Source: Atribacterota bacterium
GTDB taxonomy: Bacteria; Atribacterota; Phoenicimicrobiia; Phoenicimicrobiales; Phoenicimicrobiaceae
Assembly: GCA_038203565.1 (NCBI GenBank)
Contig: JBBRDV010000001.1
Coordinates: 72,335-136,334, forward strand
Reading direction: 5' to 3'
DNA: 64,000 nt
A program made the position numbers and the translations under genes. Under the pieces are notes generated by a model. It did no database searches, had not been told where the DNA came from, and worked only from the letters and a program-made list of their open reading frames with translations. This document shows positions 2,557 to 63,771 of the stretch, one piece after another (position 1 is the stretch's first letter; each line of letters opens with the position of its first letter).

Positions 2557-3162
2557 TTATTTTTCCATTTTGATCTTTTCTCCGATTTTTCTTTCTTTCT
2601 TTGATTTTAATTTTTCAATATTATCTTTATGTTTAAAAATACCGAGAATCATAATTATCGCACTGAATATAACATATTCATAAGGTTGTTTAAATAATAT
2701 TGTAAAAATAAAAATAGAAATTACAGCGAAAATAGATGATAAAGAGGCGTATCTTGTTATTATTATAACAATCACCCAGACTATTACTGCTAAAATTGAT
2801 ATCGTTGGATTGAGAGCAAATACAACTCCAAAGGTAGTAGCTATACCTTTACCGCCCTTAAACCCGAGAAATAAAGACCAGTCATGACCACATATTACTG
2901 CTAACCCTGCAATAGTTAATATTAATAAATTATCAATATTAAAATATTGTACTAAATAGATAGAAAAAATACCTTTGCCAATATCGCCAATTACTACAAA
3001 AGAAGCTAATAGAGGTCCCAATATCCTAAGAGCATTGGTTGCACCTATATTTCCGCTTCCGAGTTCTCTTATATCTACTTTCTTAAACAGTTTACCAACA
3101 ATATAGCCAAAAGGTATGGAACCCAAAAGATAACAACTTATAATTATTAAAACAATCTTCAT
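2557..3162 (-). CDS. plsY: glycerol-3-phosphate acyltransferase PlsY
   Basis: 201-aa polytopic membrane protein containing LGSGNIGATN and GGKGIAT motifs. Confidence 0.85.
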   Translation of the reverse strand: MKIVLIIISCYLLGSIPFGYIVGKLFKKVDIRELGSGNIGATNALRILGPLLASFVVIGDIGKGIFSIYLVQYFNIDNLLILTIAGLAVICGHDWSLFLGFKGGKGIATTFGVVFALNPTISILAVIVWVIVIIITRYASLSSIFAVISIFIFTILFKQPYEYVIFSAIIMILGIFKHKDNIEKLKSKKERKIGEKIKMEK

Positions 3163-4505
3163 ACTGTTTCCCTCTCCTCACTTTTTCTCGCTAAATTGAT
3201 AACTACAGGTGAGCCTTCAAAACCAAAAGTTTCATAAAATTTATTTTCTAAATATTTATGATAAGAGGTATACATTAATTTAGGATTGTTTACAAATAAT
3301 AGAAATGTAGGTGGTTTTATCCCTGTTTGAGTAGCGTATTTAATTTTTAGGGTATTTCCCACTACATATTTTGGAGGATTTTTAGAAATAACTTCTCTTA
3401 TAAAAGCATTTATTGCCGAAGTGGGAATTTTTTTACTGTATTGTAAGGCAACTTCTTTAATTTTTGAAATAATTTTATCAATATTATAACCTGTTATGGC
3501 AGAAGTCATTATCACGGGAGAGTTTTTCATAAAAGACAATTCATATCTTATCTCATCAATAAATAATTTTCTATCTATATTATCTTTAATTAAATCAAAT
3601 TTATTCAATATTATAATGCAGGCTTTTCTTTCATCTTGGATGTAATTTGCCATTTTTTTATCTTGCATGCTTACTCCCTGGGTAGCGTCCAATATCAATA
3701 ACACTATATCTGAATTATGCACCGCTTCAAAAGTTCTTAATGTACTGTAATATTCAACATCTTCTTTCGGTTTCGCCTTACCTCTCAAGCCTGCGGTATC
3801 GATAAATATTAATTTTAGTAAATCATGTTTAAAAATTATTTCAATAGCATCTCTGGTGGTGCCGGGATGTTCGCTGACTATAATTCTATCTTCCCCTAAA
3901 ATACGATTTAATAAACTTGATTTTCCTACATTGGGTTTCCCAATAATTGATATTTTTATAATGTCCTCTTCTTCTTCCGGTTCTGTTCCTACTTCTGGAA
4001 TACAGGATACTATTCTATCTAATAAATCATCAACATTAAGTCCGTGTTCTGCCGAAATAATATAGGGATCTCCGAATCCTAATTCGTAAAACTCATATAA
4101 TTTTAATTCACTTCCCTTTACATCTCCCTTGTTGGCTACCAGGATGCTTGTTTTATTTTTTTCTCTAATCGCTTTAGCCACCTTAAAATCATCCGGATTT
4201 ATTCCCTCTTTGACATCGACCAATAATATAATTAAGTCTGCCTCTTCAATAGCCAATTTAGTCTGAACAGTTATTTTTTTTTGCATTTCTTCTTTTTTTA
4301 TAAAATCCACGCCTCCGGTATCTACCAGAACAAATTGCTTTCCTTTCCATTTACATTCTGCATATATCCTATCTCTGGTAATTCCAGGTTCGTTTTCCAC
4401 AATAGCGGTTCTTTTCTTGGTGATTCTATTAAATAGGGTCGATTTCCCTACATTTATCCTTCCGATAATAGCAACAATAGGTTTTCTCAAGGCAAACACT
4501 CCCAT
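3159..4505 (-). CDS. der: ribosome-associated GTPase Der/EngA (tandem GTPase domains)
   Basis: Two G-domains (GRINVGKSTLFN and GKPNVGKSSLLN; DTAGLR) followed by a C-terminal KH-like domain. Overlaps plsY by 4 nt. Confidence 0.9.
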   Translation of the reverse strand: MGVFALRKPIVAIIGRINVGKSTLFNRITKKRTAIVENEPGITRDRIYAECKWKGKQFVLVDTGGVDFIKKEEMQKKITVQTKLAIEEADLIILLVDVKEGINPDDFKVAKAIREKNKTSILVANKGDVKGSELKLYEFYELGFGDPYIISAEHGLNVDDLLDRIVSCIPEVGTEPEEEEDIIKISIIGKPNVGKSSLLNRILGEDRIIVSEHPGTTRDAIEIIFKHDLLKLIFIDTAGLRGKAKPKEDVEYYSTLRTFEAVHNSDIVLLILDATQGVSMQDKKMANYIQDERKACIIILNKFDLIKDNIDRKLFIDEIRYELSFMKNSPVIMTSAITGYNIDKIISKIKEVALQYSKKIPTSAINAFIREVISKNPPKYVVGNTLKIKYATQTGIKPPTFLLFVNNPKLMYTSYHKYLENKFYETFGFEGSPVVINLARKSEERETV

Positions 4506-5237: not shown

Positions 5238-6773
5238 TTAATACAGCCATAATTTACGATCAAGGCTTCTATATTGAATGGATTCAGATAAATGAGAAAT
5301 TTCTATCTTCTTTGATTGTTCTAAATCAGCTATGGTTCGGGCTACTTTTAATATACGGTCATAAGCTCGAGTACTTAAATTTAACTTTTCCATTGCCTTG
5401 TAAAGTAAATTTTTAGCATTGTCATCAATATTACAATATTCTTTAATCTGTTTTTTGGTCATTCGAGCATTACAAAAAATACTGTCTTCACAATATCTTT
5501 CTCTTTGTATTTTTCTTGCTCTTTCCACTCTTTCTCTTATGGTAAAAGAGTTTTCTTCAAAATCCTTCTCCATGACTTCTCGACAATTTATCCGGGGGAC
5601 TTCAATATGAATGTCAATTCGATCTAATAACGGTCCCGATATTTTTGAACGATATTTAACAATTTGAGACGAACTACAAGTGCAAACCTTAACCGGATCA
5701 CCGTAAAAGCCGCAAGGACAGGGATTTAGGGAAGATATCAACATAAAAGAAGAAGTATAACTAACAGAGCTAAGAGAGCGTGAAATGGTGACTATCCCGT
5801 CTTCCAGGGGTTGACGTAGAGATTCTAAAGCACTTCGGGAAAATTCCGGTAATTCGTCTAAAAATAGTACACCATTATGGGCCAAGCTAATTTCTCCTGG
5901 TTTGGGCGTCTTGCCTCCTCCGATTAATCCAACATTACTTATAGTATGATGCGGAGCTCTGAACGGTCTCTCCGTAACCAAAGGGGTATCCGGTGGAAGT
6001 AAATTGGCAATACTATATAATTTAGTAATTTCTATAGATTCTTCCAGGGTCAAAGAAGGAAGGATGGTTGGAAGCCTGCGTGCCAGCATGGTTTTTCCGG
6101 AACCTGGCGGACCAATCATTATAACATTGTGACTTCCAGCTGCCGCTACTTCGAAGGCTCTTTTAGCGTGTTCCTGTCCTTTAACCTCAGAAAAATCTAT
6201 TAGACTGTTTTCGCTTAGTCGAAAAATATCTTCTAAATCTATGAATACCGGTTCAATGGATATTTTTTTATTTAAAAAATCAATTACTTGGTAAAGTGAA
6301 TTAACAGGAAATACTTTTAATTCTTTAATTATCCCTGCTTCCTTAGCGTTTGCTTGAGGAATAAGCAATTTTTTTTTACCTATTTTTTTTGCCATCAAAG
6401 CAATGGGAAGCACACCATTTACCGGTTTTATACTTCCATCTAAAGATAATTCACCCATAATTAGATATTCATTTAATTGATCTGGCTTAACTTGCTTACT
6501 GGCAACTAAAATTGCCAGAGCGATAGATAGGTCAAAAATAGGACCTTCTTTTTTAATGTCCGCTGGAGCAAGATTTACCGTAATTCTCTGCATAGGAAAT
6601 TCGAATTCAGTATTTTTTATGGCGGCTCTAACTCTTTCTCGGGATTCCTGAACAGCCGTATCGGGCAATCCTACGATATTGAACGAAGGCAATCCTGGAT
6701 GAATATCAACTTCGATTTCTACCATAAAAGCTTCAACTCCGAATATAGCCGCACTATATAATTTGGATAACAA
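5238..6773 (-). CDS. YifB/ComM family Mg-chelatase-like AAA+ ATPase
   Basis: N-terminal Lon-like ChlI domain, Walker [11 protein letters not shown], and a C-terminal Mg-chelatase subunit ChlI-like region. Confidence 0.8.
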
Positions 6774-12107: not shown

Positions 12108-13061
12108 TCAATCAAGAAGAGCTTCAACAAATTTTTCAGCTTTAAAATCATATAAATTATTTAATTTTTCTCCACAGCTAATTAATTTAACCGGGATATC
12201 TAACTCTTTTTTTATAGCGATTACTATTCCCCCCTTGGCTGTTCCATCCATTTTAGTAAGTGCAATTCCGGTAACTCCTAAAGATTTGTTAAAAAATTCT
12301 GCTTGAGCTATAGCATTCTGGCCCATGGTAGCATCAATGGTTTGTAATATCTCTAATGAGCAATCATTAGCCTCTTTTTGGATTACTCTTTTTATCTTTT
12401 CTAATTCACTCATTAAATTTACCTTAGTATGAAGTCTTCCGGCAGTATCGATTATGACTATATTCTTTTTCCGGGCTCGAGCTGCACTGATCCCATCATA
12501 TACGACCGAAGCCGGGTCAGCACCTTCTTTGGTATTTATCATTTCTGCTCCTACCTTACAAGCTAAAATCTTAAGTTGCTGTACTGCTGCTGCTCTAAAG
12601 GTATCGGCAGGAACCATAATTATATCATTATTTATATTTTTTAAACGATAAGCAATCTTACCCGCTATTGAAGTTTTTCCTGAACCATTTACCCCTACCA
12701 GCATGATTATATTTAATCTATTTTCATTAATCTTAATATCGGGTGCAGTTGAATTTAAGATATCTATCAGGATAACCTTTAATTTTTCTTTGAAAAATAT
12801 AAAGTTATTTTCCTTATATTCTCTAAAATTAATCTGCTGAAATTCATTCATTATCTCTGCAGTAGCGGAGGTTCCTAAGTCAGATAATATTAATAACTCT
12901 TCTAATTTTTCTAAAAAATCTGATTTATCTTTGGAATTACTAAATAAAAATCCTAATTTATTAGCAAATTCTTTCCTCGTTTTATATAGCCCTTCTTTAA
13001 ATTGGGAAAATATATTTTTTATATTCATGATTTTTATTATCCATTTTGACTTATTTTTCAA
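12108..13061 (-). CDS. ftsY: SRP receptor FtsY
   Basis: GVNGSGKTS, DTAGRLH and TKMDGTAKGG. The true start may be the internal MNIKNIF codon at 13028, which would avoid an 11-nt overlap with smc. Confidence 0.9.
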   Translation of the reverse strand: MKNKSKWIIKIMNIKNIFSQFKEGLYKTRKEFANKLGFLFSNSKDKSDFLEKLEELLILSDLGTSATAEIMNEFQQINFREYKENNFIFFKEKLKVILIDILNSTAPDIKINENRLNIIMLVGVNGSGKTSIAGKIAYRLKNINNDIIMVPADTFRAAAVQQLKILACKVGAEMINTKEGADPASVVYDGISAARARKKNIVIIDTAGRLHTKVNLMSELEKIKRVIQKEANDCSLEILQTIDATMGQNAIAQAEFFNKSLGVTGIALTKMDGTAKGGIVIAIKKELDIPVKLISCGEKLNNLYDFKAEKFVEALLD

Positions 13062-16000
13062 ATTTTACCGAAACTAATTTTGAGATACCTGATTCTTCCA
13101 TGGTTATACCATATAATGTATCTGCTGCTTCCATCGTTGTTTTTTGATGGGTAATAAGAACCAATTGCGTCTGATTTAAATCTTCCCCCTTTAATATGTG
13201 GGTAAGTTTTTCAGCATTTACTTCATCTAAAGATGTATCTATTTCATCAAAAAGACAAAAAGGGCTGGGATTTGCTTTCCACAAGGCCATTAAAAGTGCT
13301 ATAGCAGTTAAGGCTTTTTCACCGGAGGATAACAATTCAATATTTTGCGTTTTCTTTCCGGGAGGACGGGCAATTATATCTATTCCGGAGTTTAATATAT
13401 CTTCTTCAGATTCAATAATTAATCTCCCTTCCCCACCGGAAAATATTTGTTTAAATATATCATTAAAGTAGGTTTTTACCTGATTAAATGTTTTTTTAAA
13501 TCTTTCTATGGCAATTCGGTCAATTTCTGAAATTGTTATTTCCATAATTTTTTTTGCCTTACATATCTCGTCGTATTTTTCGCATAGAGAATTACAGCGC
13601 TGTAACTGATTGTGGTATCTATTTTCTGCCTCAAAGTTTATCTGTCCCACTTTTAAAATGTTGTCTCTTAAAATGTCTATCCTTTGGTTAGCTTCTTTCT
13701 GTGAACCGGATATGTTTTTGTATAATTCTAATTTTTCCAGCGATAAGTTATAATTTTTATTTACTTCTTCCTCAATGTTAACCTGTTTTTCCCGATCTTG
13801 AACCTCTAATATTTCTTCTCTATGTTGTTTGTCTTTGATTGATTCGTACGTTTTTTGTTGGTTTATCTTATCCTGCTGTAAATTTTTTAAGAGATTGGAT
13901 TTCCTTTGAATAATCTCTCCTATCTCCTCTGCTTTCTTGAAAACAGAAGGATTTTCTTTGTTCAACCTGTTTATTTGAATTTTATATTCATTTATCTTTT
14001 TTAATATATCAGCAAGTTTTTCATTATATTCTTTTACAGTACTTCTTTTTTCGTTTAAATCGACTGAATGCTCATCTTTGTATTGAGAAATATTTTCAGC
14101 CTTCTCTTTTATACTAATCAGTTTTTCTTTATTTATTAGAATAATATTTTTTAGGTTATTTATGTCTCTGGAAAGATTGTTTATACGGTTGTTCCCTCTT
14201 GTAGCAATTTGATTAATTATTTTTATAGAATGACTAATATTTTTGTTATATTCAGAAAGAGTGTTGCAATATTTTTCCAAAATACGCAATTTCCCAGAAA
14301 TATTTTTTCTCTCCTCCAAAATACTATTTTCTTCAATTAAAAGATTTTTTAAGCCATCTCTTAGTTCATTAACCGAAACTGTTGCCCTGTTCAAATTATT
14401 TATACTGTCAGTTACGTTTTTTTCGTTCTCTCGTAATAATCTTTTTATATCCTGGTTTTCTTTCCATAGAGAATTATAAATATTGTTATTTATTTTTATA
14501 AAATCATTATTTCTTTCAACTTTAATTTTTAAAGTTTTTATATCTTTTTCTAATTTTTCAATCTCTTTTTCTACATAATAAAAACTCTCTTGAGAATTCT
14601 CTGAATTTGTTGAGGTTGAATAAATATCTACGGAGCCGTCCATATTTATTACCATCCCATCTAGTGAAATAATTTTATATTTACCTAAGTACTCATTAGA
14701 AATATCAAGGGCAGTTTTTATATCTTCAACTATTAATACATTGCCCAACAAAACTTTAAATAAATTCTGATATTTTTGGGAGTAATTTATCAATTCGTGG
14801 GCAAATCCACAAATATTATGGTTTTGAATTTCACCCTGGTTATCAGGAAGTGTTTTTATATTTTTGATTAAATCCAGAGGGATTATCTTTATTTTTTCTA
14901 ATTCGTTTTCCGATAAGGAATTAATTATATTTAAAGCATATGAAATATCGCTCACTACAATTGAGTTAAAACTTTCTCTTAAAGCAATCCTCATAATTTT
15001 CTCATATTTTGAAGGAATATTATCAATGAATTTTATGATTTTTTCACAAAGGTCATCTGGATATTTTTGGCAGTATTTGGAGTAAAATACCTCTATCTTT
15101 TGTTCGTTTTTCTTCCTGTTAGTCTCAATTGATTTCCTTAAAATATTTTTCCTTTCTTCTTTTAAGCTAATTACATGTCTATCTTTTTCCACTTCTGCCT
15201 GTAATTTTTTTAAGATATTTTCAATCTCTTTTATTTTCTCTTCATTTGATTTGAGATGTGGTTCATCTTCGATTTTTCTGTTTTCCCTTACGATTCTTTG
15301 ATAATCACTCTCTTTTGTCACCATATTTTCTAATTGATTTTCAAGTAATATCCTTTTTTTTCTAATTTTTTCTAAATTCATATTTATGATATTTAAGGTA
15401 GTACTATATCTTATTTTTGCTTCCTTTAAAAACAATTCCTTTTCCGAAATTATTTTTAATACCTTTCTCGAATTAATCTCTAAAATATTAAGCGAATCGG
15501 CAAGTCTAGAAATATTATTAGTATCTTTATTTAAATAAATAAGTTTTTTATTAAAACTTTCTATTTTATTGTTTACCTCCAAAATATTCAAACTTGCTTC
15601 TTTCTTATTTTGTTCACCAATAACTATTTTTTGAGTAATATTTTCAGCTTCTTTATTTAAATCATACAGCCTTTTTTCAACATCACTCTTCTTTTGTAAC
15701 ATTAAATTTAATTCGCTCTGAATTAATTTTTTTCTATTATCCAGTTCGTAATTATCATATTTATATTTCTCTTGTTCTTTACTTGAATTATCTAACTCTA
15801 TATTTAATGAGTTACTCGCTGTTTCTTCTTCTTTAATTTTTTTTATAATCTTGTTTTTTTCTTTTTCGTATTGTTCTAAATTTCTTTTTATTTTAGATAA
15901 ATTTGTTCTGCTTAAATTATATTTTTGATAGATTAAAAATAATTCCAAATTTTTAATCTCTTCTTGACATATTTTATAACTATTTAGATGTTTTGCTTCT

Positions 16001-16620
16001 TCTTCCAAAATTAATAATTGATTTTTTATTTCAGAAATTATATTTTCAATCTTATCTAAATTATTATTGATTTCCTCTATTTTATCTAAAGTTTTTTTCT
16101 TTTCATGTCTATATTTAGAAATAGAGGCAGCTTCTTCAAATAAATAACGTCTTTCAGGTGGTTTTGCACTTAAAATAAGATCTACTTCGCCCTGAGCAAT
16201 GATGGAATAGGTATTTTTACTCAATCCTGTATTCATAAATAATTCTTGAATCTCTTTCAATTTACAAGGGATTCCATTAATAAAACTTTCGGTCTCTCCG
16301 GAACGATAAATTCTTCTTTTAATATTTATTTCTTCCCAATCTAACGGGAGAACCTTCTCATAATTATTGACAGTTAACGAAACTTCCGCTAAGTTTAAAG
16401 GTTTTTCTTTGTGATTTCCTGAAAAAATAATATCTGTTAGCTGTTTTCCCCGTAATGACCTGATATTCTGTTCACCCAATACCCACCTGACTGCATCGGT
16501 AATATTGCTCTTGCCGCAACCATTTGGACCGACTATTGCGGTTATGCCAGAATTAAATGATAATTTAATTTTTTTTCCAAATGATTTAAATCCATATATT
16601 TCAAGTTCTTTTAAAAACAC
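13051..16620 (-). CDS. smc: chromosome segregation ATPase SMC
   Basis: 1189 aa with N-terminal Walker A GPNGCGKSN, long coiled coils, a hinge, and a C-terminal LSGGEKALTAIALL signature with Walker B. Confidence 0.95.
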   Translation of the reverse strand: MFLKELEIYGFKSFGKKIKLSFNSGITAIVGPNGCGKSNITDAVRWVLGEQNIRSLRGKQLTDIIFSGNHKEKPLNLAEVSLTVNNYEKVLPLDWEEINIKRRIYRSGETESFINGIPCKLKEIQELFMNTGLSKNTYSIIAQGEVDLILSAKPPERRYLFEEAASISKYRHEKKKTLDKIEEINNNLDKIENIISEIKNQLLILEEEAKHLNSYKICQEEIKNLELFLIYQKYNLSRTNLSKIKRNLEQYEKEKNKIIKKIKEEETASNSLNIELDNSSKEQEKYKYDNYELDNRKKLIQSELNLMLQKKSDVEKRLYDLNKEAENITQKIVIGEQNKKEASLNILEVNNKIESFNKKLIYLNKDTNNISRLADSLNILEINSRKVLKIISEKELFLKEAKIRYSTTLNIINMNLEKIRKKRILLENQLENMVTKESDYQRIVRENRKIEDEPHLKSNEEKIKEIENILKKLQAEVEKDRHVISLKEERKNILRKSIETNRKKNEQKIEVFYSKYCQKYPDDLCEKIIKFIDNIPSKYEKIMRIALRESFNSIVVSDISYALNIINSLSENELEKIKIIPLDLIKNIKTLPDNQGEIQNHNICGFAHELINYSQKYQNLFKVLLGNVLIVEDIKTALDISNEYLGKYKIISLDGMVINMDGSVDIYSTSTNSENSQESFYYVEKEIEKLEKDIKTLKIKVERNNDFIKINNNIYNSLWKENQDIKRLLRENEKNVTDSINNLNRATVSVNELRDGLKNLLIEENSILEERKNISGKLRILEKYCNTLSEYNKNISHSIKIINQIATRGNNRINNLSRDINNLKNIILINKEKLISIKEKAENISQYKDEHSVDLNEKRSTVKEYNEKLADILKKINEYKIQINRLNKENPSVFKKAEEIGEIIQRKSNLLKNLQQDKINQQKTYESIKDKQHREEILEVQDREKQVNIEEEVNKNYNLSLEKLELYKNISGSQKEANQRIDILRDNILKVGQINFEAENRYHNQLQRCNSLCEKYDEICKAKKIMEITISEIDRIAIERFKKTFNQVKTYFNDIFKQIFSGGEGRLIIESEEDILNSGIDIIARPPGKKTQNIELLSSGEKALTAIALLMALWKANPSPFCLFDEIDTSLDEVNAEKLTHILKGEDLNQTQLVLITHQKTTMEAADTLYGITMEESGISKLVSVKFEK

Positions 16621-16629
16621 TCTTTTACC

Positions 16630-17358
16630 TCATTTTATTGCTTTTAACTTTTTTAAAGTATCTTGTGCGGCATCCTGTTCTGCCTCTTTTTTATTCTCAC
16701 CAGTTCCGGTTCCATAGGTGATTTTCTTTAGTCTTACCTCAATACAAAATATTTTTTTATGATCCGGACCTTTTTCTTTAATTAGACAATATTCGGGTAA
16801 ACATTTCATCTTTTTTTGAGAAATTTCCTGTAGTAAAGTTTTATAATCTTCCCCATACTTTCCCTTCATAATTAGTTCCGTTTCTTTTTTTATAAATGAT
16901 GAGATAATTTTTTTAGCTTTTTGGAGGCCGCTATCTAAATATATTGCTCCTAATAAAGCCTCAAAACAATCTGCAAGAATAGATAATTTATTTCTCCCTC
17001 CGGTTGAATCTTCCCCTTTTCCCAAAATAATGTACTTTCCTAAGGAAAGGCGATCAGCCCATTTCGCCAAAATATCCTTGCTAACCATAACAGATTTAAT
17101 TTTTGTAAGCTTACCTTCCGAAAAAGAGACTAATTTACGATAAAGATATTCAGTAACAATTAAATTTAAAACAGAATCACCTAAAAATTCTAATCTTTGA
17201 TTGTTGGTTATCTTGTCTTTTAAACTTTTTTTTTGGAAAGAAGAATGGGTTAAAGCTTCTTTTAGAAGGGTTTTATTTTTAAATTTATAATCTAATTTTT
17301 TTTCTAAATTATTTGACATTAAATCCTTTTCTTTTTTCAAAGCCAGTATATCACTCAT
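16630..17358 (-). CDS. rnc: ribonuclease III
   Basis: RNase III signature ERLEFLGDSVL plus a dsRBD. The start is probably MSDIL (17358); the ORF track extends to 17382. Confidence 0.9.
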   Translation of the reverse strand: MSDILALKKEKDLMSNNLEKKLDYKFKNKTLLKEALTHSSFQKKSLKDKITNNQRLEFLGDSVLNLIVTEYLYRKLVSFSEGKLTKIKSVMVSKDILAKWADRLSLGKYIILGKGEDSTGGRNKLSILADCFEALLGAIYLDSGLQKAKKIISSFIKKETELIMKGKYGEDYKTLLQEISQKKMKCLPEYCLIKEKGPDHKKIFCIEVRLKKITYGTGTGENKKEAEQDAAQDTLKKLKAIK

Positions 17359-17713
17359 CTTTTTTATATTTGCCTGAACCAATTATAACTCCCGTTGAAT
17401 AAGAATCCTTTTCAGTAATTTTCAATTTAGAATCCTCAAGTGCCAGCATTGCCGCAACAATTGAAAATTGAGTGCTTTTATCCATTCTGTTTGCTTCTTT
17501 GACAGATATGTAATTTGTATAATTGAAATCTTTTACTTCTGCTGCTATTTTAGTAGGATATTTTTCGGTATCGAAATAACTTATCCTGTCGATACCACAT
17601 TTTCCTTGAATTAAGGATTGCCAAAATTTATTTTTTCCAATTCCTACGGGAGTAACCGGACCTAAACCGGTAATTACCACTCTATTTTTCAATATCCTAT
17701 TCTCCACCGTCAT
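17351..17713 (-). pseudogene. fabF: 3-oxoacyl-ACP synthase II (FabF) N-terminal remnant, only 120 codons
   Basis: MTVENRILKNRVVITGLGPVTPVGIG..FDTEKYPTKIAAEVKDF..STGVIIGSG matches FabF residues ~1-125. It then stops (..KYKKDE*) exactly at the rnc start. No room remains for the ~290 missing codons. Confidence 0.7.
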
Positions 17714-17744
17714 TAAATAATTTTTTTTATCAAATTTACATTTT

Positions 17745-17842
17745 AAATAAGGGTCGGATAAATCTCCAACCCTTATTTAATTAGACATTAATCTTAATTT
17801 CTTACCGTTATTCTTTATACATATTTTTTAAAAAATATGTAT
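17745..17842 (-). promoter_or_regulatory. acpP-distal hairpin (17745-17778) and 26-bp perfect AT palindrome (17817-17842)
   Basis: AAATAAGGGT..ACCCTTATTT 10-bp stem, and ATACATATTTTTTAAAAAATATGTAT. Candidate acpP terminator or processing region; the U-tract is weak. Confidence 0.35.
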
Positions 17843-17876
17843 AAAAAATACTCATGCATATTTTATATTTATATTC

Positions 17877-18101
17877 TTATTTGCTTAAGTATTTAACCGC
17901 ATCTCCAACAGTCTTAATTTTTTCTGCATCTTCATCTGGAATTTCTACATCAAATTCTTCCTCAAAAGCCATAATAAGTTCGACAATATCTAAAGAATCC
18001 GCACCTAAATCGTCAACAAAAGAAGAGTTTTCTGTAATTTTACTTTCATCAACTCCTAATTGATCTACTATTATTTTTTTTACTCTATCTATTGACTCCA
18101 T
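17877..18101 (-). CDS. acpP: acyl carrier protein
   Basis: 74 aa with the LGADSLD phosphopantetheine attachment motif. Confidence 0.95.
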
Positions 18102-18120: not shown

Positions 18121-18867
18121 TCACATTACCATACCGCCATCGACATTTATAACTTGCCCAGTAATATAATTTGCTGCATCAGAAACTAAAAAATACACCA
18201 CTTTAGCGATATCTTCCACAGTACCCAACCTTTTTAAAGGGATATGCTGTTGGAGATCTTGTCTAACTTTTTCCGGTAATTTCTTAGTCATATCTGTCTC
18301 GATAAATCCAGGCGCAATAGCATTTACATTTATATTTCTTAAGGCAAGTTCTTTTGCCATTGATTTAGTTAATCCTATTATCCCCGCTTTTGATGCGGCA
18401 TAATTAACCTGCCCGATATTTCCTATCAATCCGATAACTGAGGATATATTTACAATTTTATCAGTGCTCTTTTGCCTCATCATATATTTTGCCACAGCTT
18501 TGGAACAATTAAAAGTACCTTTTAGATTTATTCTTATCACTGCATCCCAATCCTCTTCTTTCATCCTGATTAAAAGAGAATCTCGGGTTATTCCAGCATT
18601 ATTTACTAATATATCTATTTTCCCAAATTTATTTATAATCTCCTTCATCATTCTATTCACTTCATCAAATACAGTTATATCAGCTTTTATCCCAATCGCT
18701 ATATTACCACCTCTTGTGATTTCTTCCAAAGTTTTATCGATCTCATTTTTTGGTAGAATATCATTAACAATTATATTTGCTCCATGATTGGCCAATTCCT
18801 GGGCAATAGCTTTACCTATTCCACGAGCTGATCCGGTAATTAAAGCAACCTTCCCAGATAGTCCCAT
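18121..18867 (-). CDS. fabG: 3-oxoacyl-ACP reductase
   Basis: SDR family: TGSARGIGKAIA, NNAG and YAASKAG. Confidence 0.9.
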   Translation of the reverse strand: MGLSGKVALITGSARGIGKAIAQELANHGANIIVNDILPKNEIDKTLEEITRGGNIAIGIKADITVFDEVNRMMKEIINKFGKIDILVNNAGITRDSLLIRMKEEDWDAVIRINLKGTFNCSKAVAKYMMRQKSTDKIVNISSVIGLIGNIGQVNYAASKAGIIGLTKSMAKELALRNINVNAIAPGFIETDMTKKLPEKVRQDLQQHIPLKRLGTVEDIAKVVYFLVSDAANYITGQVINVDGGMVM

Positions 18868-18868
18868 T

Positions 18869-19819
18869 TTATAAGACCTCCTCTATTTTTTCAACTACAT
18901 TTTGAAGAGAATTTGAATCAAATACATTAAAGACATTAGACTCGGGAATAATTTGCGTAATTAATTCTTTCAACACTTTCCCGGGGCCTACCTCTATAAA
19001 ATATTTAATACCTTCGGAATACATTTTTGTTATAGTATCAACCCACTTTACAGGATGAGTCATTTGTTTGATTAGAGCTGATCTAACCTCTTCTTTATTG
19101 TGCATATAATCAGCACTAACATTGCAACGTATAGGTATTTTGGGATTATCTATTTTTACTTTTTCCAAATATCTTGCTAAATTCTCTTTGGCTGTCTCCA
19201 TAAAGGATGAGTGAAAAGGAGCATTTACTTTTAAAGGTATTACCATCCTTGCTCCTTTCTCTTTGGCCATTATTGATAACTTTTCCAATGCTTTATTTTC
19301 ACCGGAAACTACAATTTGAGTCGGAGAATTATAATTAGCAATTTCCACTACCCCAATATCCTTAATTTTTTCACACATTTTACTTATCTCATTTTTTTCT
19401 AAGCCGATAATTGCTAACATTGAACCAGTTCCTGCTGGAGTTGCACTCTGCATATATTCTCCTCTTTTCCTTACTAACTTCACTGCATCTTCAAATTTAA
19501 TAGCAGAACTAGCTACCAGTGCTGAATATTCTCCCAAACTATGTCCTGCAACTATAGAAGGCTTAACTTTATTTTTTCTTAATAATTTGCACAAAATTGT
19601 ACTGATAGTTAAAATTGCAGGTTGAGCATTAACCGTATTTTTTAATTCTTCTTCTGGTCCTTCGAAACAGATTTTACCAATATCTACTCCTTCTTCTTTT
19701 AGAGCTTTATTAGCTATATTAAATAAAATATTTGCTTCGGGGTAATTCTCTATTAAATCTTTTCCCATTCCTATTTTTTGAGAACCTTGACCAGGAAATA
19801 CAAAAGCTATTTTGTTCAT
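18869..19819 (-). CDS. fabD: malonyl CoA-ACP transacylase
   Basis: FPGQGSQ and GHSLGEYSAL active-site motifs. Confidence 0.9.
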   Translation of the reverse strand: MNKIAFVFPGQGSQKIGMGKDLIENYPEANILFNIANKALKEEGVDIGKICFEGPEEELKNTVNAQPAILTISTILCKLLRKNKVKPSIVAGHSLGEYSALVASSAIKFEDAVKLVRKRGEYMQSATPAGTGSMLAIIGLEKNEISKMCEKIKDIGVVEIANYNSPTQIVVSGENKALEKLSIMAKEKGARMVIPLKVNAPFHSSFMETAKENLARYLEKVKIDNPKIPIRCNVSADYMHNKEEVRSALIKQMTHPVKWVDTITKMYSEGIKYFIEVGPGKVLKELITQIIPESNVFNVFDSNSLQNVVEKIEEVL

Positions 19820-19860: not shown

Positions 19861-20853
19861 TTATTTAATCCATTTTATAACAATGGTGCCGCTAGTTAGA
19901 CCAGCACCAAATGCGGTAAGTGCTACGATATCACCATTTTTAATCTTACCTTCTTTTACTGCTTCATCAAGAGCAATCATAACAGAAGCAGCTGAGGTAT
20001 TTCCATATTTATTTAAATTTACAAAAACTTTATCTTTTTTTATTTTCAAAACTCTTGTCAGGGCAGAAATAATTCGGATGTTTGCTTGATGCGGAATAAA
20101 ACAATCTACATCTTCTACCGAAAGATTACATTTATCCAAAGTTTTTACAGTTGTCCTTTTCATGTTTTTTACTGCAAACTTAAATACTTCATTTCCTTTC
20201 ATCTTAACATAATGCATTTTCTTTTCTACGGTTTCATGGGAAGCAGGGTTTTTAGAAAGCCCGGCTGGTATCATAATCAAATCATCGTACGACCCGTCTC
20301 CTGTCAAACAACCAGAAAAGATTCCTTTCTCCTGGTCGGCTTTTAAAACAGCCGCCCCTGCTCCATCGCCAAAAAGAATACAAGTATTTCTGTCAGTCCA
20401 ATCAACGAATTTTGAGAGAGTATCTGCCCCGATTACTAAAACATTATCATAAAAACCGGTAGCAATATACTGCCAAGCAGTAATTAGGGCATAAACCGCA
20501 CCAGTACAACCTGCTTGCAGATCAAAGGTTGCGGCATTTACAGCTTTAATTCTCTTTTGAATCAGGCAAGCGGTAGCTGGAAAAATCATATCCGGAGAAT
20601 TGGTAGCAACAATGATTAAATCAATCTCCTCCGGTTTAATATTTGAATCTTTTAGCGCTTTCAAAGCTGCCTTTGCAGCTATATCTGAAGTTGTTTCATT
20701 ATCTTCAGCTATACGGCGTTCAGCAATACCGGTTCTGGTGACAATCCATTCGTGATTTGTATCCACCATTTTTTCCAAATCTTCATTAGTTAGAACTTTT
20801 GTGGGAACATAAGAACCTGTTCCAATTATTTTAACATTTTTTATATTTTTCAT
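19861..20853 (-). CDS. fabH: 3-oxoacyl-ACP synthase III
   Basis: FabH family: ..ACTGAVYAL.. and HQANIRI. Confidence 0.9.
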   Translation of the reverse strand: MKNIKNVKIIGTGSYVPTKVLTNEDLEKMVDTNHEWIVTRTGIAERRIAEDNETTSDIAAKAALKALKDSNIKPEEIDLIIVATNSPDMIFPATACLIQKRIKAVNAATFDLQAGCTGAVYALITAWQYIATGFYDNVLVIGADTLSKFVDWTDRNTCILFGDGAGAAVLKADQEKGIFSGCLTGDGSYDDLIMIPAGLSKNPASHETVEKKMHYVKMKGNEVFKFAVKNMKRTTVKTLDKCNLSVEDVDCFIPHQANIRIISALTRVLKIKKDKVFVNLNKYGNTSAASVMIALDEAVKEGKIKNGDIVALTAFGAGLTSGTIVIKWIK

Positions 20854-20898: not shown

Positions 20899-21876
20899 TT
20901 ATATTTCTTTAAAGTGCTCAACTATGTTAGCATCAATAAATTTACCGGTATTAAGTATAGCATTTTTAAAAGTTTTTGCTTTAGACCGTCCATGACATAT
21001 AAAGCATAATCCGTTTACGCCTAATAGGGGAGATCCGCCATATTCTGTATAATCGGTCATTTTTACCAAATTCATAAATTTTTCCTTTAATTTATCCATT
21101 TCTTGATTTTGGGGAAGTTGACTGATTACCATACTATTAACCTCTGTTAAAAGCAATTTTGCTAAACCTTCAGAAGATTTTAATAATATGTTGCCAGTAA
21201 ATCCATCACAAACTAATACATCTGCTTTTCCCTTAAAAATATCCTTACCTTCGATATTCCCCACAAAATTAATATTGGCACTTTCTAAATTTTTATAGGC
21301 ATTTTGACTAAATTTATTTCCTTTATTTTCTTCCTCACCTATATTTAGCAATCCTATTTTCGGATTTTCTATTCCTAAAATATATTTTGCGTATTTGCTT
21401 CCTATAAAGGCAAATTGGGGTAAATGTTCCGGTTTGCAATCAACATTTGCACCCACATCTAATACTAATACTTTCCCTTTTTCCGAGGGCAATATGGCAG
21501 CAATAGCCGGACGGCGTATTTGAGGAATACACCCTAACTCCAATAATGCCGCGGCCATAACCGCCCCGCTATTTCCGGCAGAAATAAAAGCATCAGCCTG
21601 ATTATTTTTTATTAATTTCGTGCCTATCACTATAGAAGAATCCCTTTTATTCCGTATGGCATCTAAAGGAAACTCACCTGTTTCAATATATTCTTTACAA
21701 ATTATGACCGATAATTTATCTTTTTTATATTTATATTTTATTAACTCTTTTTTGACTTTCTCCATATCACCTAATAAAATAATCTCTAAGTCTCTTTCTT
21801 CTAAGGCTAAAATTGCGCCTTTCACAACTTCTTCGGGGGCATAATCCCCTCCCATGGCATCAAGAGCTATTTTCAT
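20899..21876 (-). CDS. plsX: phosphate acyltransferase PlsX
   Basis: MKIALDAMGGDYAP.. PlsX N-terminus. Lies immediately downstream of fapR. Confidence 0.9.
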   Translation of the reverse strand: MKIALDAMGGDYAPEEVVKGAILALEERDLEIILLGDMEKVKKELIKYKYKKDKLSVIICKEYIETGEFPLDAIRNKRDSSIVIGTKLIKNNQADAFISAGNSGAVMAAALLELGCIPQIRRPAIAAILPSEKGKVLVLDVGANVDCKPEHLPQFAFIGSKYAKYILGIENPKIGLLNIGEEENKGNKFSQNAYKNLESANINFVGNIEGKDIFKGKADVLVCDGFTGNILLKSSEGLAKLLLTEVNSMVISQLPQNQEMDKLKEKFMNLVKMTDYTEYGGSPLLGVNGLCFICHGRSKAKTFKNAILNTGKFIDANIVEHFKEI

Positions 21877-22464
21877 TTAAGCTTTCTCCTTTTTTACTTT
21901 ATCGTTAACCGAAAAAATTACTAATTTTCCCGTAAATACTTCCTTTTGATCAGATTTTACGTGTACTGATACTAAATATTTATTACCTCTATTACGAGCA
22001 ACCCTTGCCTTGGCAACCAAAGTTTCTCCGGCATATACAGGTTTTTTGTAACTTAATCGGGCAATTCCCGTTAAGGCAACTTCTGTGTCAATGATGGAAA
22101 TGGCTAATGAGTCGGCTAAAGAAAAGATATAGTGACTTCGAATTATTCCGGTTCTTCCAAAAGCCATATCTTTTGTAGTCTTCAAGATAGCAATTCCGTT
22201 TTTTCCTAACTCTATATCTATTAATTCTCCGATTATCTCTTCTCTTTTTAGAGATTTTACCTTATCCTTGGAAGAAGTATTTTTGGCAACCAGCACTATC
22301 CGTTTTCTCATTTCAGGAATCCCCATTTCCAGTCGATCTAATCGAATAGTTTGCACACTAATGCTAAATAATTCAGCAAGTTTTTTATCAGACAAAAATG
22401 GGTCCTTCGAAATATTTTCCTTTATTCTTTTTTGCCTTTCTAATTTACTTAAATTTCGAATCAT
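21877..22464 (-). CDS. fapR: fatty acid and phospholipid biosynthesis regulator FapR
   Basis: N-terminal HTH (SVQTIRLDRLEMGIPE) plus a hotdog thioesterase-like effector domain. Upstream of plsX, as in Bacillota. Confidence 0.85.
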   Translation of the reverse strand: MIRNLSKLERQKRIKENISKDPFLSDKKLAELFSISVQTIRLDRLEMGIPEMRKRIVLVAKNTSSKDKVKSLKREEIIGELIDIELGKNGIAILKTTKDMAFGRTGIIRSHYIFSLADSLAISIIDTEVALTGIARLSYKKPVYAGETLVAKARVARNRGNKYLVSVHVKSDQKEVFTGKLVIFSVNDKVKKEKA

Positions 22465-25776: not shown

Positions 25777-25888
25777 ATTTCTATACGCAATACACGTACG
25801 ATATGCGAGATACGGATATATTACTATCAATTTTATTGCAAATTTTGTATAATTATAACATAAAATATTTTTTAAATCGAGAAATCTT

Positions 25889-31438: not shown

Positions 31439-31554
31439 TTAAATACACGTTTTAAGTTTTCAGCTCTCGGTTTTCAGTAAGTAGGGCCGTATTGCTTATT
31501 CTATTAACCGGTAAACCGAGTAACTGGTCAACTAATACGATATACGATATACTG

Positions 31555-35298: not shown

Positions 35299-37941
35299 CT
35301 ATATCTTATTCCTTTCCTTTAGAATATTTTTTACAAATCTAATTTCATCTCTTTTATTTTTTACCTCTCCATCTAACTTGGCACAAAGTAATTTATTTAA
35401 AATCTGCGAATAGATCGGACCTGGTTTTAGCTGTAGTTCTTTTAATTCATTTCCTGAAATATATAGACTTTCTTTTTTATATTTTCTAAAATAGTTGTTT
35501 ATCCTTTCTTTTGCAATATTAGTGTCGCTTTCCGTCATAGCTAAAAATAATGCTTCGTTAGGTAAACCTTTTAATTTTAAATAGATAACGCTCGGTGATA
35601 TTTTAGTTTTTTGTGATATCATTTTTATGATTTGATCTAAATTTGAGTAACAATAATTTATCTTGTCTATAAACTTTTGCTTAATGATTAGCTTTTTATA
35701 AATTCTCTGTAGTTGACTTTTTTTTAGATTTCTAATTAAACAGCAAAAATATATGACCCACAATTCTATTTTTTCATCAGGTATATCGTGTGTCCAAAAA
35801 TCAAAATTGTCTTTTACCTTGTTTAATCTTTCAACTGTTGCTTCATTTAATTCAAAATCCGGAAGAATATACTTTAACGCTCCTAATTCTTCCATTCTTT
35901 TTAAAGATTTTAATGGATTTTCTTCTTTCAATATTAGAATTAATTCTTCAGTGATTCTTTTCTTTCTTAATCTGGAGAGTAATTTATCATCAATAGCTTT
36001 TTTAAGAAAATCTTCTGTTGTCCTATTCATTTTAAAATTATATCTCTGTTCAAATCTTATTGCCCGTATAATACGTGCCGGATCTTCAACAAAACTCAAA
36101 TTATACAAAACCCTGATTGTACCTATACGCAAATCTTTCTGCCCACCAAAAAAGTCGATTAATTTTCCAAAATACTTCTGGTTTAACTGGACAGCCATGG
36201 CATTTATAGTAAAATCTCTTCTATATAAGTCTTTTTTAATTGAACTTAGCTCAACCTTAGGAAAGGCTGCGGGGTATTCATAAAATTCTCTTCGCGCAGT
36301 TGCCACATCTATTTTAAAATCATCCGCTAAAATTACTATTGCGGTTCCAAATTTTTCGTGGCTTTTAGTTCTCCCTCCCAAGTCTCTTCTTAACTCTCGG
36401 GCAAATTTTATTCCTTCTCCTTCAACCACAATGTCAAGATCATAATTCTTAATCCCTAAAAATAGGTCTCTTACGATCCCACCTACCATAAAAACTGGAA
36501 AATCTAATCTATCACCTATCTCCCCAATTTTATTTAGAACATCTTTAACTCTTTTGGGAAATATTTTTTCTATTAATTCTATTTGCTTCTTTCTCTCTAT
36601 ATTGCTGCTGGTCTCAACATAAGTTGAAAATGATCTTTTGGGAATATGGCCCTCTCCATATAAATTTCTTATTAAATCAGTTCTGGTAATAATTCCTACC
36701 AATTTATCTTCTTGGCTAACAACTAGTATCCTCCCGATATCGTAATTGATCATTAATTCTTGAATTTCAGTTAAAGGAGTATTCAATTTTACGGTAACTA
36801 CCTGATCGGACATATATTTACTTACCAGCTCTTTTCCAAGTCCATGTTGTTTGGCCTTATTTACTTCCTGCGTTGTTATAATGCCCTTTAGCTCCCCCGC
36901 TTCTACTACCGGAATACCGTTATGTCCGTATCTTAATAATATTTTTTTCGTCTCTTCAATAGAAGCTAAAGTATTAACAGTCTTAATCGGTGAAGACATA
37001 ATATCTTTCGCTACAATTCCCGCCCTTACTTTTTTTTCTAAGATCCTGATAAGTTTTTTCTCTAATTCATCAAGAGATAAATCTTTTACTACAGCCGAAG
37101 CTGCCTGAAAGTGACCTCCCCCTCCTAATTCTTTTAAAACTTCATCTACGTCAACAGAATTTGTTCTACTTCTTCCAACTATATATATTCGGTCTACCAT
37201 TTTTACTATAGTAAAAAAAACATCGCTATTTTCTATTTCTATTAATTTATGAGTAAGAAGAGCTAGCCCTTCTGTATAATTTTTTACTTCTGCATTAGCC
37301 ATATTAATTCGTATGCCCTTGCAAAATATTTCCTTAGAAGAAAGCAGCAATTTATTTAATAATTTTTTTTGAGCTATGCTTAGGCCGATATTTATAAAAT
37401 TTGCTACAACTTTTAAGTTTATACCTTTATCAAATAAATAAGAAATACTATTTATATCATCAATCGTAGTAGTTGAAAAAGTAAGGGAGCCGGTATCTTC
37501 ATAAATCCCCAAGGCAAACAGAGTTGCTTCGATGGGACTAATTTCTAAATTCATTTTCCTTATTTTTTTCAACATTATGGTAGTAGTTGCCCCTACTTCT
37601 TCTATTGCATTAATGTCCCCTTTAATATCATCCGCAGTGGAGGGGTGGTGATCATAGATATGAATTTCCAAATCTCTCTTATTTATTACATTAGCAAATG
37701 GTCCAATCCGTCTTTTTATTCTAGTGTCAACTATTATCAATTTATTAATTTCTTCTATTTTAATTTTCTTAATAGGGGTTATCTCTATCAAATCGCCATA
37801 CATAGAGATAAATTTTCTTACATTTCTCTCTATTGCTCCGGTAAATACTAAAAGAGCGTCTTTATATATTTTTTTGGCTGCCACCATAGCAGCCAAAGAA
37901 TCAAAATCAGTGCTTTGATGACTTATAATTACTTCCAACAA
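35299..37941 (-). CDS. multidomain DHH-DHHA1 / CBS pair / poly(A) polymerase-head (tRNA nucleotidyltransferase-like) / HD protein
   Basis: N-terminal DHH motifs (HQSTDFDSL.., ..DHHP), DHHA1 (GGGH), two CBS domains, then a nucleotidyltransferase head (GG.VRD.. ..DLDIVVEG..RRDFTINA) and a C-terminal helical/HD-like region. Confidence 0.7.
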   Translation of the reverse strand: MLEVIISHQSTDFDSLAAMVAAKKIYKDALLVFTGAIERNVRKFISMYGDLIEITPIKKIKIEEINKLIIVDTRIKRRIGPFANVINKRDLEIHIYDHHPSTADDIKGDINAIEEVGATTTIMLKKIRKMNLEISPIEATLFALGIYEDTGSLTFSTTTIDDINSISYLFDKGINLKVVANFINIGLSIAQKKLLNKLLLSSKEIFCKGIRINMANAEVKNYTEGLALLTHKLIEIENSDVFFTIVKMVDRIYIVGRSRTNSVDVDEVLKELGGGGHFQAASAVVKDLSLDELEKKLIRILEKKVRAGIVAKDIMSSPIKTVNTLASIEETKKILLRYGHNGIPVVEAGELKGIITTQEVNKAKQHGLGKELVSKYMSDQVVTVKLNTPLTEIQELMINYDIGRILVVSQEDKLVGIITRTDLIRNLYGEGHIPKRSFSTYVETSSNIERKKQIELIEKIFPKRVKDVLNKIGEIGDRLDFPVFMVGGIVRDLFLGIKNYDLDIVVEGEGIKFARELRRDLGGRTKSHEKFGTAIVILADDFKIDVATARREFYEYPAAFPKVELSSIKKDLYRRDFTINAMAVQLNQKYFGKLIDFFGGQKDLRIGTIRVLYNLSFVEDPARIIRAIRFEQRYNFKMNRTTEDFLKKAIDDKLLSRLRKKRITEELILILKEENPLKSLKRMEELGALKYILPDFELNEATVERLNKVKDNFDFWTHDIPDEKIELWVIYFCCLIRNLKKSQLQRIYKKLIIKQKFIDKINYCYSNLDQIIKMISQKTKISPSVIYLKLKGLPNEALFLAMTESDTNIAKERINNYFRKYKKESLYISGNELKELQLKPGPIYSQILNKLLCAKLDGEVKNKRDEIRFVKNILKERNKI

Positions 37942-37989: not shown

Positions 37990-38160
37990 AAATGATAGAA
38001 CATAGTATTTCGTATTTCGTATTTCGTTAAGAAAGACTAGCGCAGAGTGTGTAGCGTTTAGTGTAGAGTTAAGAAAGAAGAATACAAAAGTCTAATTCGT
38101 ATTTGGTGAATCGTATCTCGGATGTAACGATATACCATATACGATATACGATATACGATT
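37990..38160. repeat. cluster of 7-bp-periodic tandem repeats and ACGCT-module
   Basis: (GTATTTC)x3 at 38004-38026; CTAGCGCAGAGTGTGTAGCGTTTAGTGTAGAG, the reverse complement of the CTCTACGCTAAACGCT..CACT module; CGTATCTCG; and (ATACGAT)x3 ending at the pdp stop. Confidence 0.7.
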
Positions 38161-48374: not shown

Positions 48375-48672
48375 AACTAAATATAGTATCGAGTATCAAG
48401 TATCCAGTATCGAGCGAAGGAAATCGGTTGTCAGTTATCGGTTATAATTTTTAAATAAAGAAATAAAAAGAATTGGATTCTGTATTCTGACTTCTTTTTA
48501 TTAACTAACCAGCAAGGGATGCAATGTGTAACATTTGGTAAGTAACGTGTAATAAGTAACCCGTTGTTGTAAATCCAGAACTATAGTTTTATTACATATT
48601 ACTTAATACTGTGTTCTTTTCACTCTACGCTAAACGCTCCACACTAGTTTGCACGAGATACGAGATACGAAT
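48375..48672. repeat. two repeat clusters in the recO-glyQ spacer
   Basis: 48380-48415 TATCGAGTATCAAGTATCCAGTATCGAG (TCGAGTA-type heptads) and 48612-48672 CTCTACGCTAAACGCTCCACACTAGTTTGCACGAGATACGAGATACGA. Confidence 0.65.
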
Positions 48673-63617: not shown

Positions 63618-63771
63618 ATAATTTACACTCCTAAGTTAGTCGTTAGTTTGAAATACAATATACAAGATAAACTAGTTAAATAGTTTAATTCTAATAATTT
63701 ATTAACCAATTAACTAAGTAATTAAGCAACAAATCGAGATATATATTAAAATTATAAAATTATAAAAACAA

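Follow-up and report, generated by a model that had tools for sequence, protein, structure and literature searches.

A probable fabF remnant, left by an in-frame deletion, in the fatty-acid synthesis cluster of a JS1-lineage Atribacterota genome

The open reading frame between acpP and rnc

The fatty-acid synthesis cluster of an Atribacterota genome, lying in a window of 64,000 nucleotides (the whole stretch of DNA that was analysed), holds an open reading frame of only 120 codons in the place of fabF, which raises the question of whether this is a gene in its own right, what is left of a larger one, or an error of assembly. The cluster is read from the minus strand and comprises fapR (21877-22464), plsX (20899-21876), fabH (19861-20853), fabD (18869-19819), fabG (18121-18867) and the acyl carrier protein gene acpP (17877-18101; Pfam and NCBIfam), all intact, followed by the 120-codon stump, the RNase III gene rnc (16630-17319, 229 aa from a conserved ATG; NCBIfam and comparison with relatives) and, in the same orientation, smc (13051-16620; list of open reading frames). 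Each neighbour of the stump scored above its NCBIfam cutoff, and the gene order was that of the original prediction, fapR-plsX-fabH-fabD-fabG-acpP-fabF-rnc-smc.

The open reading frame (17351-17713, minus strand; MTVENRILKNRVVITGLGPVTPVGIG...STGVIIGSGKYKKDE) opens at an upstream in-frame ATG, contains FabF residues 1-107 and closes with KYKKDE and a stop. It matched PF00109 (ketoacyl-synt; E=4.2e-18, positions 2-126 of 252 in the Pfam profile) and the FabF family TIGR03150 (E=6.6e-36, positions 1-105 of 407 in the NCBIfam profile), in agreement with the prediction of a clean FabF N-terminus of 120 codons after acpP. The match to TIGR03150 reached 123.9 bits against a cutoff of 493.75, far from a whole FabF protein, whereas the full-length relative L024 scored 632.6 bits over profile positions 1-406. 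Pfam gave no match of the stump to PF02801 and an incomplete one to PF00109, so that the two-domain thiolase fold is not present.

Homology to full-length FabF ends at residue 107 in the canonical MKNR numbering (residue 114 of the 120-aa open reading frame), at window position 17372, leaving no space for the rest of the gene, as had been predicted. The retained codons 1-107 (MKNR...GVIIGSG; 17372-17692, minus strand, by alignment to full-length FabF) encode a segment 98% identical over 107 aa to the full-length Atribacterota proteins P0060 and P0072, and this identity, together with a position between acpP and rnc shared with 48 related loci, indicates an orthologous origin. By comparison with related loci, the canonical fabF start (MKNRVV...) falls at a TTG codon (17690-17692, minus strand); of 55 related loci, 51 have ATG here, and the only other sequence with the TTG is Logan contig L001. 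Two loci, L079 and L080, have ACG at this position. A Shine-Dalgarno-like GGTGGAG is still present at the stump together with the upstream in-frame ATG.

The intergenic region between acpP and fabF (17743-17850, minus strand) folds into two strong hairpins (z = -7.2 against shuffled sequences) that are conserved in relatives, one AT-rich with a 19-bp stem (17809-17850) and one GC-rich (17743-17780). These may act as a terminator, an attenuator or an RNase III processing site; a promoter and terminator scan around the locus gave matches no higher than the shuffled expectation. Among strains, the GC-rich hairpin (AAGGGTCGG-loop-CCGACCCTT) has its loop in either orientation (AGATTTAT or ATAAATCT), a small 'flip' inversion.

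Anatomy and age of the deletion

Compared with a 413-aa orthologue, the stump lacks residues 108-409, a loss of 302 codons (906 bp) in frame, and the related loci align on both sides of this clean gap, which upholds the predicted precise internal deletion leaving a FabF remnant. Two details of that prediction were revised: the missing piece is 906 bp instead of about 870 bp, the last six codons being native FabF tail, and the active-site cysteine lies 56 residues beyond the break (Cys163 against residue 107) instead of about 40. Relative to FabF-type KAS II (TIGR03150, composed of PF00109 and PF02801, with the triad Cys163-His303-His340 in Escherichia coli), the first 107 residues are orthologous, whereas the deleted segment held all three catalytic residues, the second half of PF00109 and the whole of PF02801.

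The 3' end of the open reading frame is colinear with that of the intact gene. Full-length orthologues end in GVIVLGKYKE(D) or NSFGFGGHNGVIVLGKYKE(D) before the stop, and the tail GGCAAATATAAAAAAGATGAGTGA of the window aligns to their GGCAAGTATAAGGAAGATTAGTAA. The window sequence GGC AAA TAT AAA AAA GAT GAG TGA, whose last seven codons (17351-17371, minus strand) encode KYKKDE and the stop and are homologous to GKYKED or GKYKE plus stop, aligns base for base with GGC AAG TAT AAG GAA GAT TAG TAA of locus L004, one of the relatives with a tight fabF-rnc junction, and in both the rnc leader follows. A simple truncation by a new stop codon was discarded, since the last six native codons and the stop are kept.

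Both breakpoints fall in a 13-nt imperfect direct repeat (ATTGGTTCAGGCA and ATTGTTTTAGGCA, identical at 11 of 13 positions), each version of which is common among relatives. The left breakpoint is in ATTGGTTCAGGCA/TAGG (I-G-S-G/I-G) and the right one in ATTGTTTTAGGCA/AATA (I-V-L-G/K-Y), where ATTGTTTTAGGCA corresponds to codons 406-410 of full-length alleles; the two sites of the relatives appear in the window as ATTGGTTCAGGCAAATA, in which a single repeat copy, the left one, is kept at the junction (17371-17383, minus strand, by alignment to relatives). No exact match shared by the breakpoints is longer than the 5-nt microhomology AGGCA at 17371-17375. These features suggest a single deletion of codons 108-409 between the ATTGGTTCAGGCA copy, encoding (I)IGSG, and the ATTGTTTTAGGCA copy, encoding (V)IVLG, which would have arisen by replication slippage (slipped mispairing) or by illegitimate recombination at short homologies. 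The classic case of spontaneous deletions between short direct repeats is reportedly that of lacI, attributed to Albertini et al. 1982, which the window resembles in having its breakpoints in a short direct repeat of which one copy is kept. The likeness extends to the length of the homology, with 5 exact nucleotides in the window and 5 (ATAAT) in locus L005, described below; unlike the lacI deletions, the mechanism in the window is deduced from sequence alone.

The deletion may have left expression of the downstream genes untouched. In relatives, rnc begins with M-S/T/L-N-N-L-E-K-K-L-D-Y-K-F and encodes 229 aa in five other assemblies, and the corresponding start in the window is the ATG at 17317-17319, located 31 nt downstream of the TGA of the stump (17351-17353). 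The intervening leader (TATACTGGCTTTGAAAAAAGAAAAGGATTTA; 17320-17350, minus strand), with a Shine-Dalgarno-like AAGGA motif, is conserved in relatives. Both in the list of open reading frames and among the genes called on the Logan contig, rnc begins further upstream, at a TTG at 17382 (250 aa), and the overlap of the stump's stop with the rnc start that had been predicted exists only if rnc is extended to that TTG or to an ATG at 17358; the fabF stop does overlap the conserved rnc ATG in loci L010 and L012 (ATGACAAATAA). With the reading frame, the native stop and the leader all preserved, translation of rnc-smc should be unchanged, with no polarity and with the same ribosome traffic. An in-frame outcome has a chance expectation of 1 in 3, and it is plausible that survival favours non-polar deletions such as this one. 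The case illustrates that an in-frame deletion with clean ends may pass for a short gene joined to the next one; in annotation, the open reading frame is best marked as a pseudogene, with rnc starting at 17319.

The usual organisation of the locus was established from related loci gathered with the RNase III protein, taking one genome per species, plus 80 loci from a metagenome scan. The nearest RNase III matches, at 90-96% protein identity, were metagenome-assembled genomes named Candidatus Sediminicultor or Atribacterota, which placed the window in the JS1 lineage of that phylum. Among 52 JS1 Atribacterota loci spanning acpP to rnc, fabF is uninterrupted (413-414 aa) in 48, which is the outcome of the comparison of orthologous loci proposed with the original prediction; the other four are the window, L005, L026 and L003, which has a gap of Ns inside fabF. 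A search with a full-length FabF protein returned at least 120 distinct 90%-identity clusters of 413-431 aa, all at least 90% identical, and no paralogue was found among the matches listed (the best 120, all orthologues with at least 90% identity). FabF is therefore normally present in this clade, single at the locus and strongly conserved.

Judging from this comparison, fabF between acpP and rnc is ancestral in the JS1 clade and the arrangement in the window is secondary. The backbone of the cluster has the same gene order as fapR-plsX-fabD-fabG-acpA-rnc-smc-ftsY of Bacillus subtilis, in which we take the direct adjacency of acpA and rnc, with no fabF, to be native. A deeper Atribacterota lineage (L016, L084 and L085; rnc 60-65% identical) carries pta-...-fapR-plsX-acpP-rnc-smc, and its member L084 resembles B. 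subtilis in having fapR-plsX-acpP-rnc with no fabF between. In the cluster of this lineage (225-4681 in L084), fabH, fabD, fabG and fabF are all absent, being either elsewhere in the genome or lost. Unlike B. subtilis, the window still holds both ends of fabF between acpP and rnc.

The flanks of the deletion are 96.5-97.5% identical to those of L003 and of strains L023, L024, L008 and L051, the last four of which carry a 413-aa fabF. The stump differs from the closest full-length alleles at 4-6 nt in 318, and pairwise dN/dS in the intact genes fapR, plsX, fabH, fabD, fabG and acpP is 0.05-0.4. Because the stump and the flanks have diverged so little, the deletion appears to be recent and at strain level, a within-species polymorphism. 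Taken with the anatomy of the junction, the open reading frame is very probably a non-functional fabF (KAS II) remnant produced by a recent single deletion in a JS1-lineage Atribacterota.

The adjacent acpP may have a different history. Its dS to the closest strains is 0.35-0.41, compared with 0.02-0.08 for the adjacent fabG and the fabF stump, and because this synonymous divergence is so far above that of its neighbours, allelic replacement by recombination at acpP (17877-18101, minus strand) is suggested.

Authenticity of the junction and alternative readings

The alternative that survives best, and which we nevertheless consider improbable, is an artefact, in which the genome has a full-length fabF and the junction was created by repeat collapse, by a PCR or MDA template-switch chimera, or by the mixing of strains. 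FabF is intact almost universally elsewhere in the clade, template-switch chimeras also arise at microhomologies, and the only database entries with proteins of the window are Logan contigs of one sequencing run, SRR19962010. FabD and the stump were found in no other run, the exact SMC protein is in no record, and no paper was found to mention the run. One Logan contig of the run (L001, 1,538 bp) is 100% identical to window positions 16301-17838 across the junction and another (L021) agrees with the window at all but 1 of 2,580 bp. L001, the product of a separate pipeline (k=31), crosses the junction without branching and extends into about 340 bp of fabF in one direction and over 1 kb in the other, so that the junction is supported by two assemblies, which are probably from the same or a sister sample and may share reads. 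By exact-sequence look-up, five other samples contain the closest full-length protein (P0060), and SRR19962010 gave no match to it.

Repeat collapse requires an exact match of about k-1 bases. Because the breakpoints have no more than 5 consecutive bases in common (within the 11 of 13 shared), far below the k of any assembler, such a collapse is unlikely, and the identity of the separate Logan contig across the junction weighs further against the assembly collapse that the original prediction had offered as one explanation. Sporadic chimeras, for their part, would not become the consensus path in two assemblies. The haplotype with the junction also carries a private change from ATG to TTG at the canonical fabF start, and real, independent deletions of fabF occur in relatives on contigs of 61 kb and 38.5 kb.

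It is far less probable still that the stump encodes a working short protein of a separate kind, such as a regulatory or ACP-binding mini-protein. The frame is open to the native stop, preceded by an upstream ATG and the Shine-Dalgarno-like GGTGGAG, and has taken few substitutions, a low divergence that the recent age of the deletion explains. The product would be a 107-residue piece of a thiolase fold in which half of the N-terminal domain (PF00109) and all of PF02801 are missing, and there is no family of such proteins, its exact sequence being on one contig only. A family of short proteins had been hinted at by the first homology search with the stump, which returned short proteins only; on inspection these proved to be fragments at contig ends or with frameshifts, continuing ...GSGIGGIGTFEKQH... 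as ordinary FabF, and no similar short homologue was found in other genomes. The short protein family that had been named as the alternative to a truncated FabF thus fails.

Least probable of all is a split or relocated gene, in which the missing 302 codons moved elsewhere and supply KAS activity alone or with the stump: the 64 kb contain no middle or C-terminal part of fabF, residues 108-409 by themselves would have neither a start nor the complete fold, and the native last six codons, still in place, agree with a deletion between direct repeats but disagree with a translocation.

Fatty-acid elongation and fabF loss in Atribacterota

Because the triad, half the fold and the whole C-terminal domain are gone, the predicted product of the remnant cannot condense malonyl-ACP or act as a ketosynthase, and elongation by type II fatty-acid synthesis (FASII) from this locus would be abolished. 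The deletion would be an ordinary kind of gene loss that removed the only elongating enzyme seen at the locus. Besides the stump, tblastn with full-length Atribacterota FabF found no second KAS II or KAS I in the 64-kb window. Among some 50 other open reading frames of the window, annotated with Pfam and NCBIfam, there was no FabB/FabF, FabZ, enoyl reductase, Acc, FakA/B or acyl-ACP synthetase; these are housekeeping genes, with plsY (2557-3162) as the sole other lipid gene among them. Literature on fatty-acid synthesis in Atribacterota yielded nothing bearing on fabF copy number.

Three consequences for the strain were considered. It may take up exogenous fatty acids, which we rate somewhat short of an even chance and with which the presence of PlsX and PlsY, together the acyl-phosphate route to phosphatidic acid, is compatible. 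It might use another ketosynthase encoded outside the window, a plausible if rather doubtful solution. The allele could also be harmful and yet linger in a subsurface population that grows slowly, which seems unlikely without being far-fetched. Because the other fab genes are intact and FabF is very conserved in the clade, a long-lived FabF-less lineage would be surprising, leaving room for a minority or defective allele.

A bypass of FASII by exogenous fatty acids is reported for Staphylococcus aureus (PMC5059476). The window resembles the Firmicutes bypass in that a FASII gene is inactive while plsX, plsY and acpP are kept; it differs in that FakA/FakB-DegV and an acyl-ACP synthetase were not seen in the window, that the case comes from a different phylum and an environmental genome, and that it is known from the genome only. 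Streptococcus agalactiae is another member of the Firmicutes in which exogenous fatty acids bypass FASII, and in this phylum the PlsX/PlsY route makes the bypass possible, since it can draw on acyl-phosphate derived from scavenged fatty acids. Atribacterota of the JS1 lineage dominate deep marine and aquifer sediments, and scavenging of sediment or necromass lipids by some subsurface Atribacterota, if true, would be a natural FASII bypass outside the Firmicutes. A strain with no elongating ketosynthase at all would bear both on the economy of membrane synthesis under extreme energy limitation and on FASII being conditionally dispensable beyond host-associated Firmicutes.

Other lesions of fabF occur among the relatives. 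In Candidatus Atribacteria bacterium RBG_19FT_COMBO_35_14, a metagenome-assembled genome from the Rifle aquifer, fabF is wholly deleted on a 61-kb contig (L005, MEYH01000090; deletion site at 5829-6040), and the contig Ga0154857_1090 (L026, 38.5 kb; deletion site at 3790-4001) has an identical fabF-less locus, so that the two are counted as one event. Both keep the 5' region of fabF as far as ...AATAGGATAAT, joined to the rnc leader TTTGAAAAAAGAAAAG or TTTGAAAAAAG at an ATAAT that is found at both parental sites in relatives, and their fapR, plsX, fabH, fabD, fabG and acpP are all intact. The flanks are about 95% identical to the window and the end points differ from those of its deletion, which on comparison of the sequences is a separate event. 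A third locus (L022; PVMK01089408.1, 2109-2802), from a related strain (about 90% nucleotide identity) with intact fabD, fabG and acpP, has a fabF with one additional A in an A-run and an in-frame change from GGC to TGA. This may be a true pseudogene; the presence of two lesions makes an error of sequencing less likely.

Counting the in-frame deletion of the window, the whole-gene deletion of MEYH01000090 and the frameshift with nonsense change of PVMK01089408, fabF may have been inactivated independently at least two, perhaps three, times in JS1. This could mean that some strains live on scavenged lipids and elongate no fatty acids de novo, or that an unrecognised ketosynthase takes the place of FabF, a broader reading that we regard as tentative and, on the whole, unlikely.

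A further contig (L002; Logan SRR25013518_46, 1-760) has the first 500 nt or so of fabF, to the active-site TACAS codons, joined to an inverted fabG, and acpP is missing. This is either an inversion or an assembly chimera, and it was treated as a possible chimera.

The spacer between fabF and rnc ranges from -5 to +712 bp among the 48 loci with uninterrupted fabF. The long spacers contain MITE-like inserts with terminal inverted repeats of about 44 nt, made up of CGTATAT/CGTATTT heptamers, and internal hairpins (for example L024:3690-3965, L023:3725-3950 and L035:2370-2750); there are none at this position in the window, L004, L010 or L012. Elsewhere in the window, the CGTATWT-heptamer repeat occurs 10 times against an expectation of 0.18, with placed copies at 25797-25813, 31536-31552, 48652-48668 and 63647-63663 and as an inverted pair about 160 bp apart at 37998-38156. 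Every placed copy is intergenic, which points to small palindromic elements forming a family between the genes of this genome.

A protein of 880 aa encoded at 35299-37941 (minus strand) has an end-to-end match to 'A-adding tRNA nucleotidyltransferase' of 808 bits, below the cutoff of 1440, with weaker N-terminal matches to an NrnA/DHH-type phosphoesterase and to CBS domains, and would be a long fused architecture.
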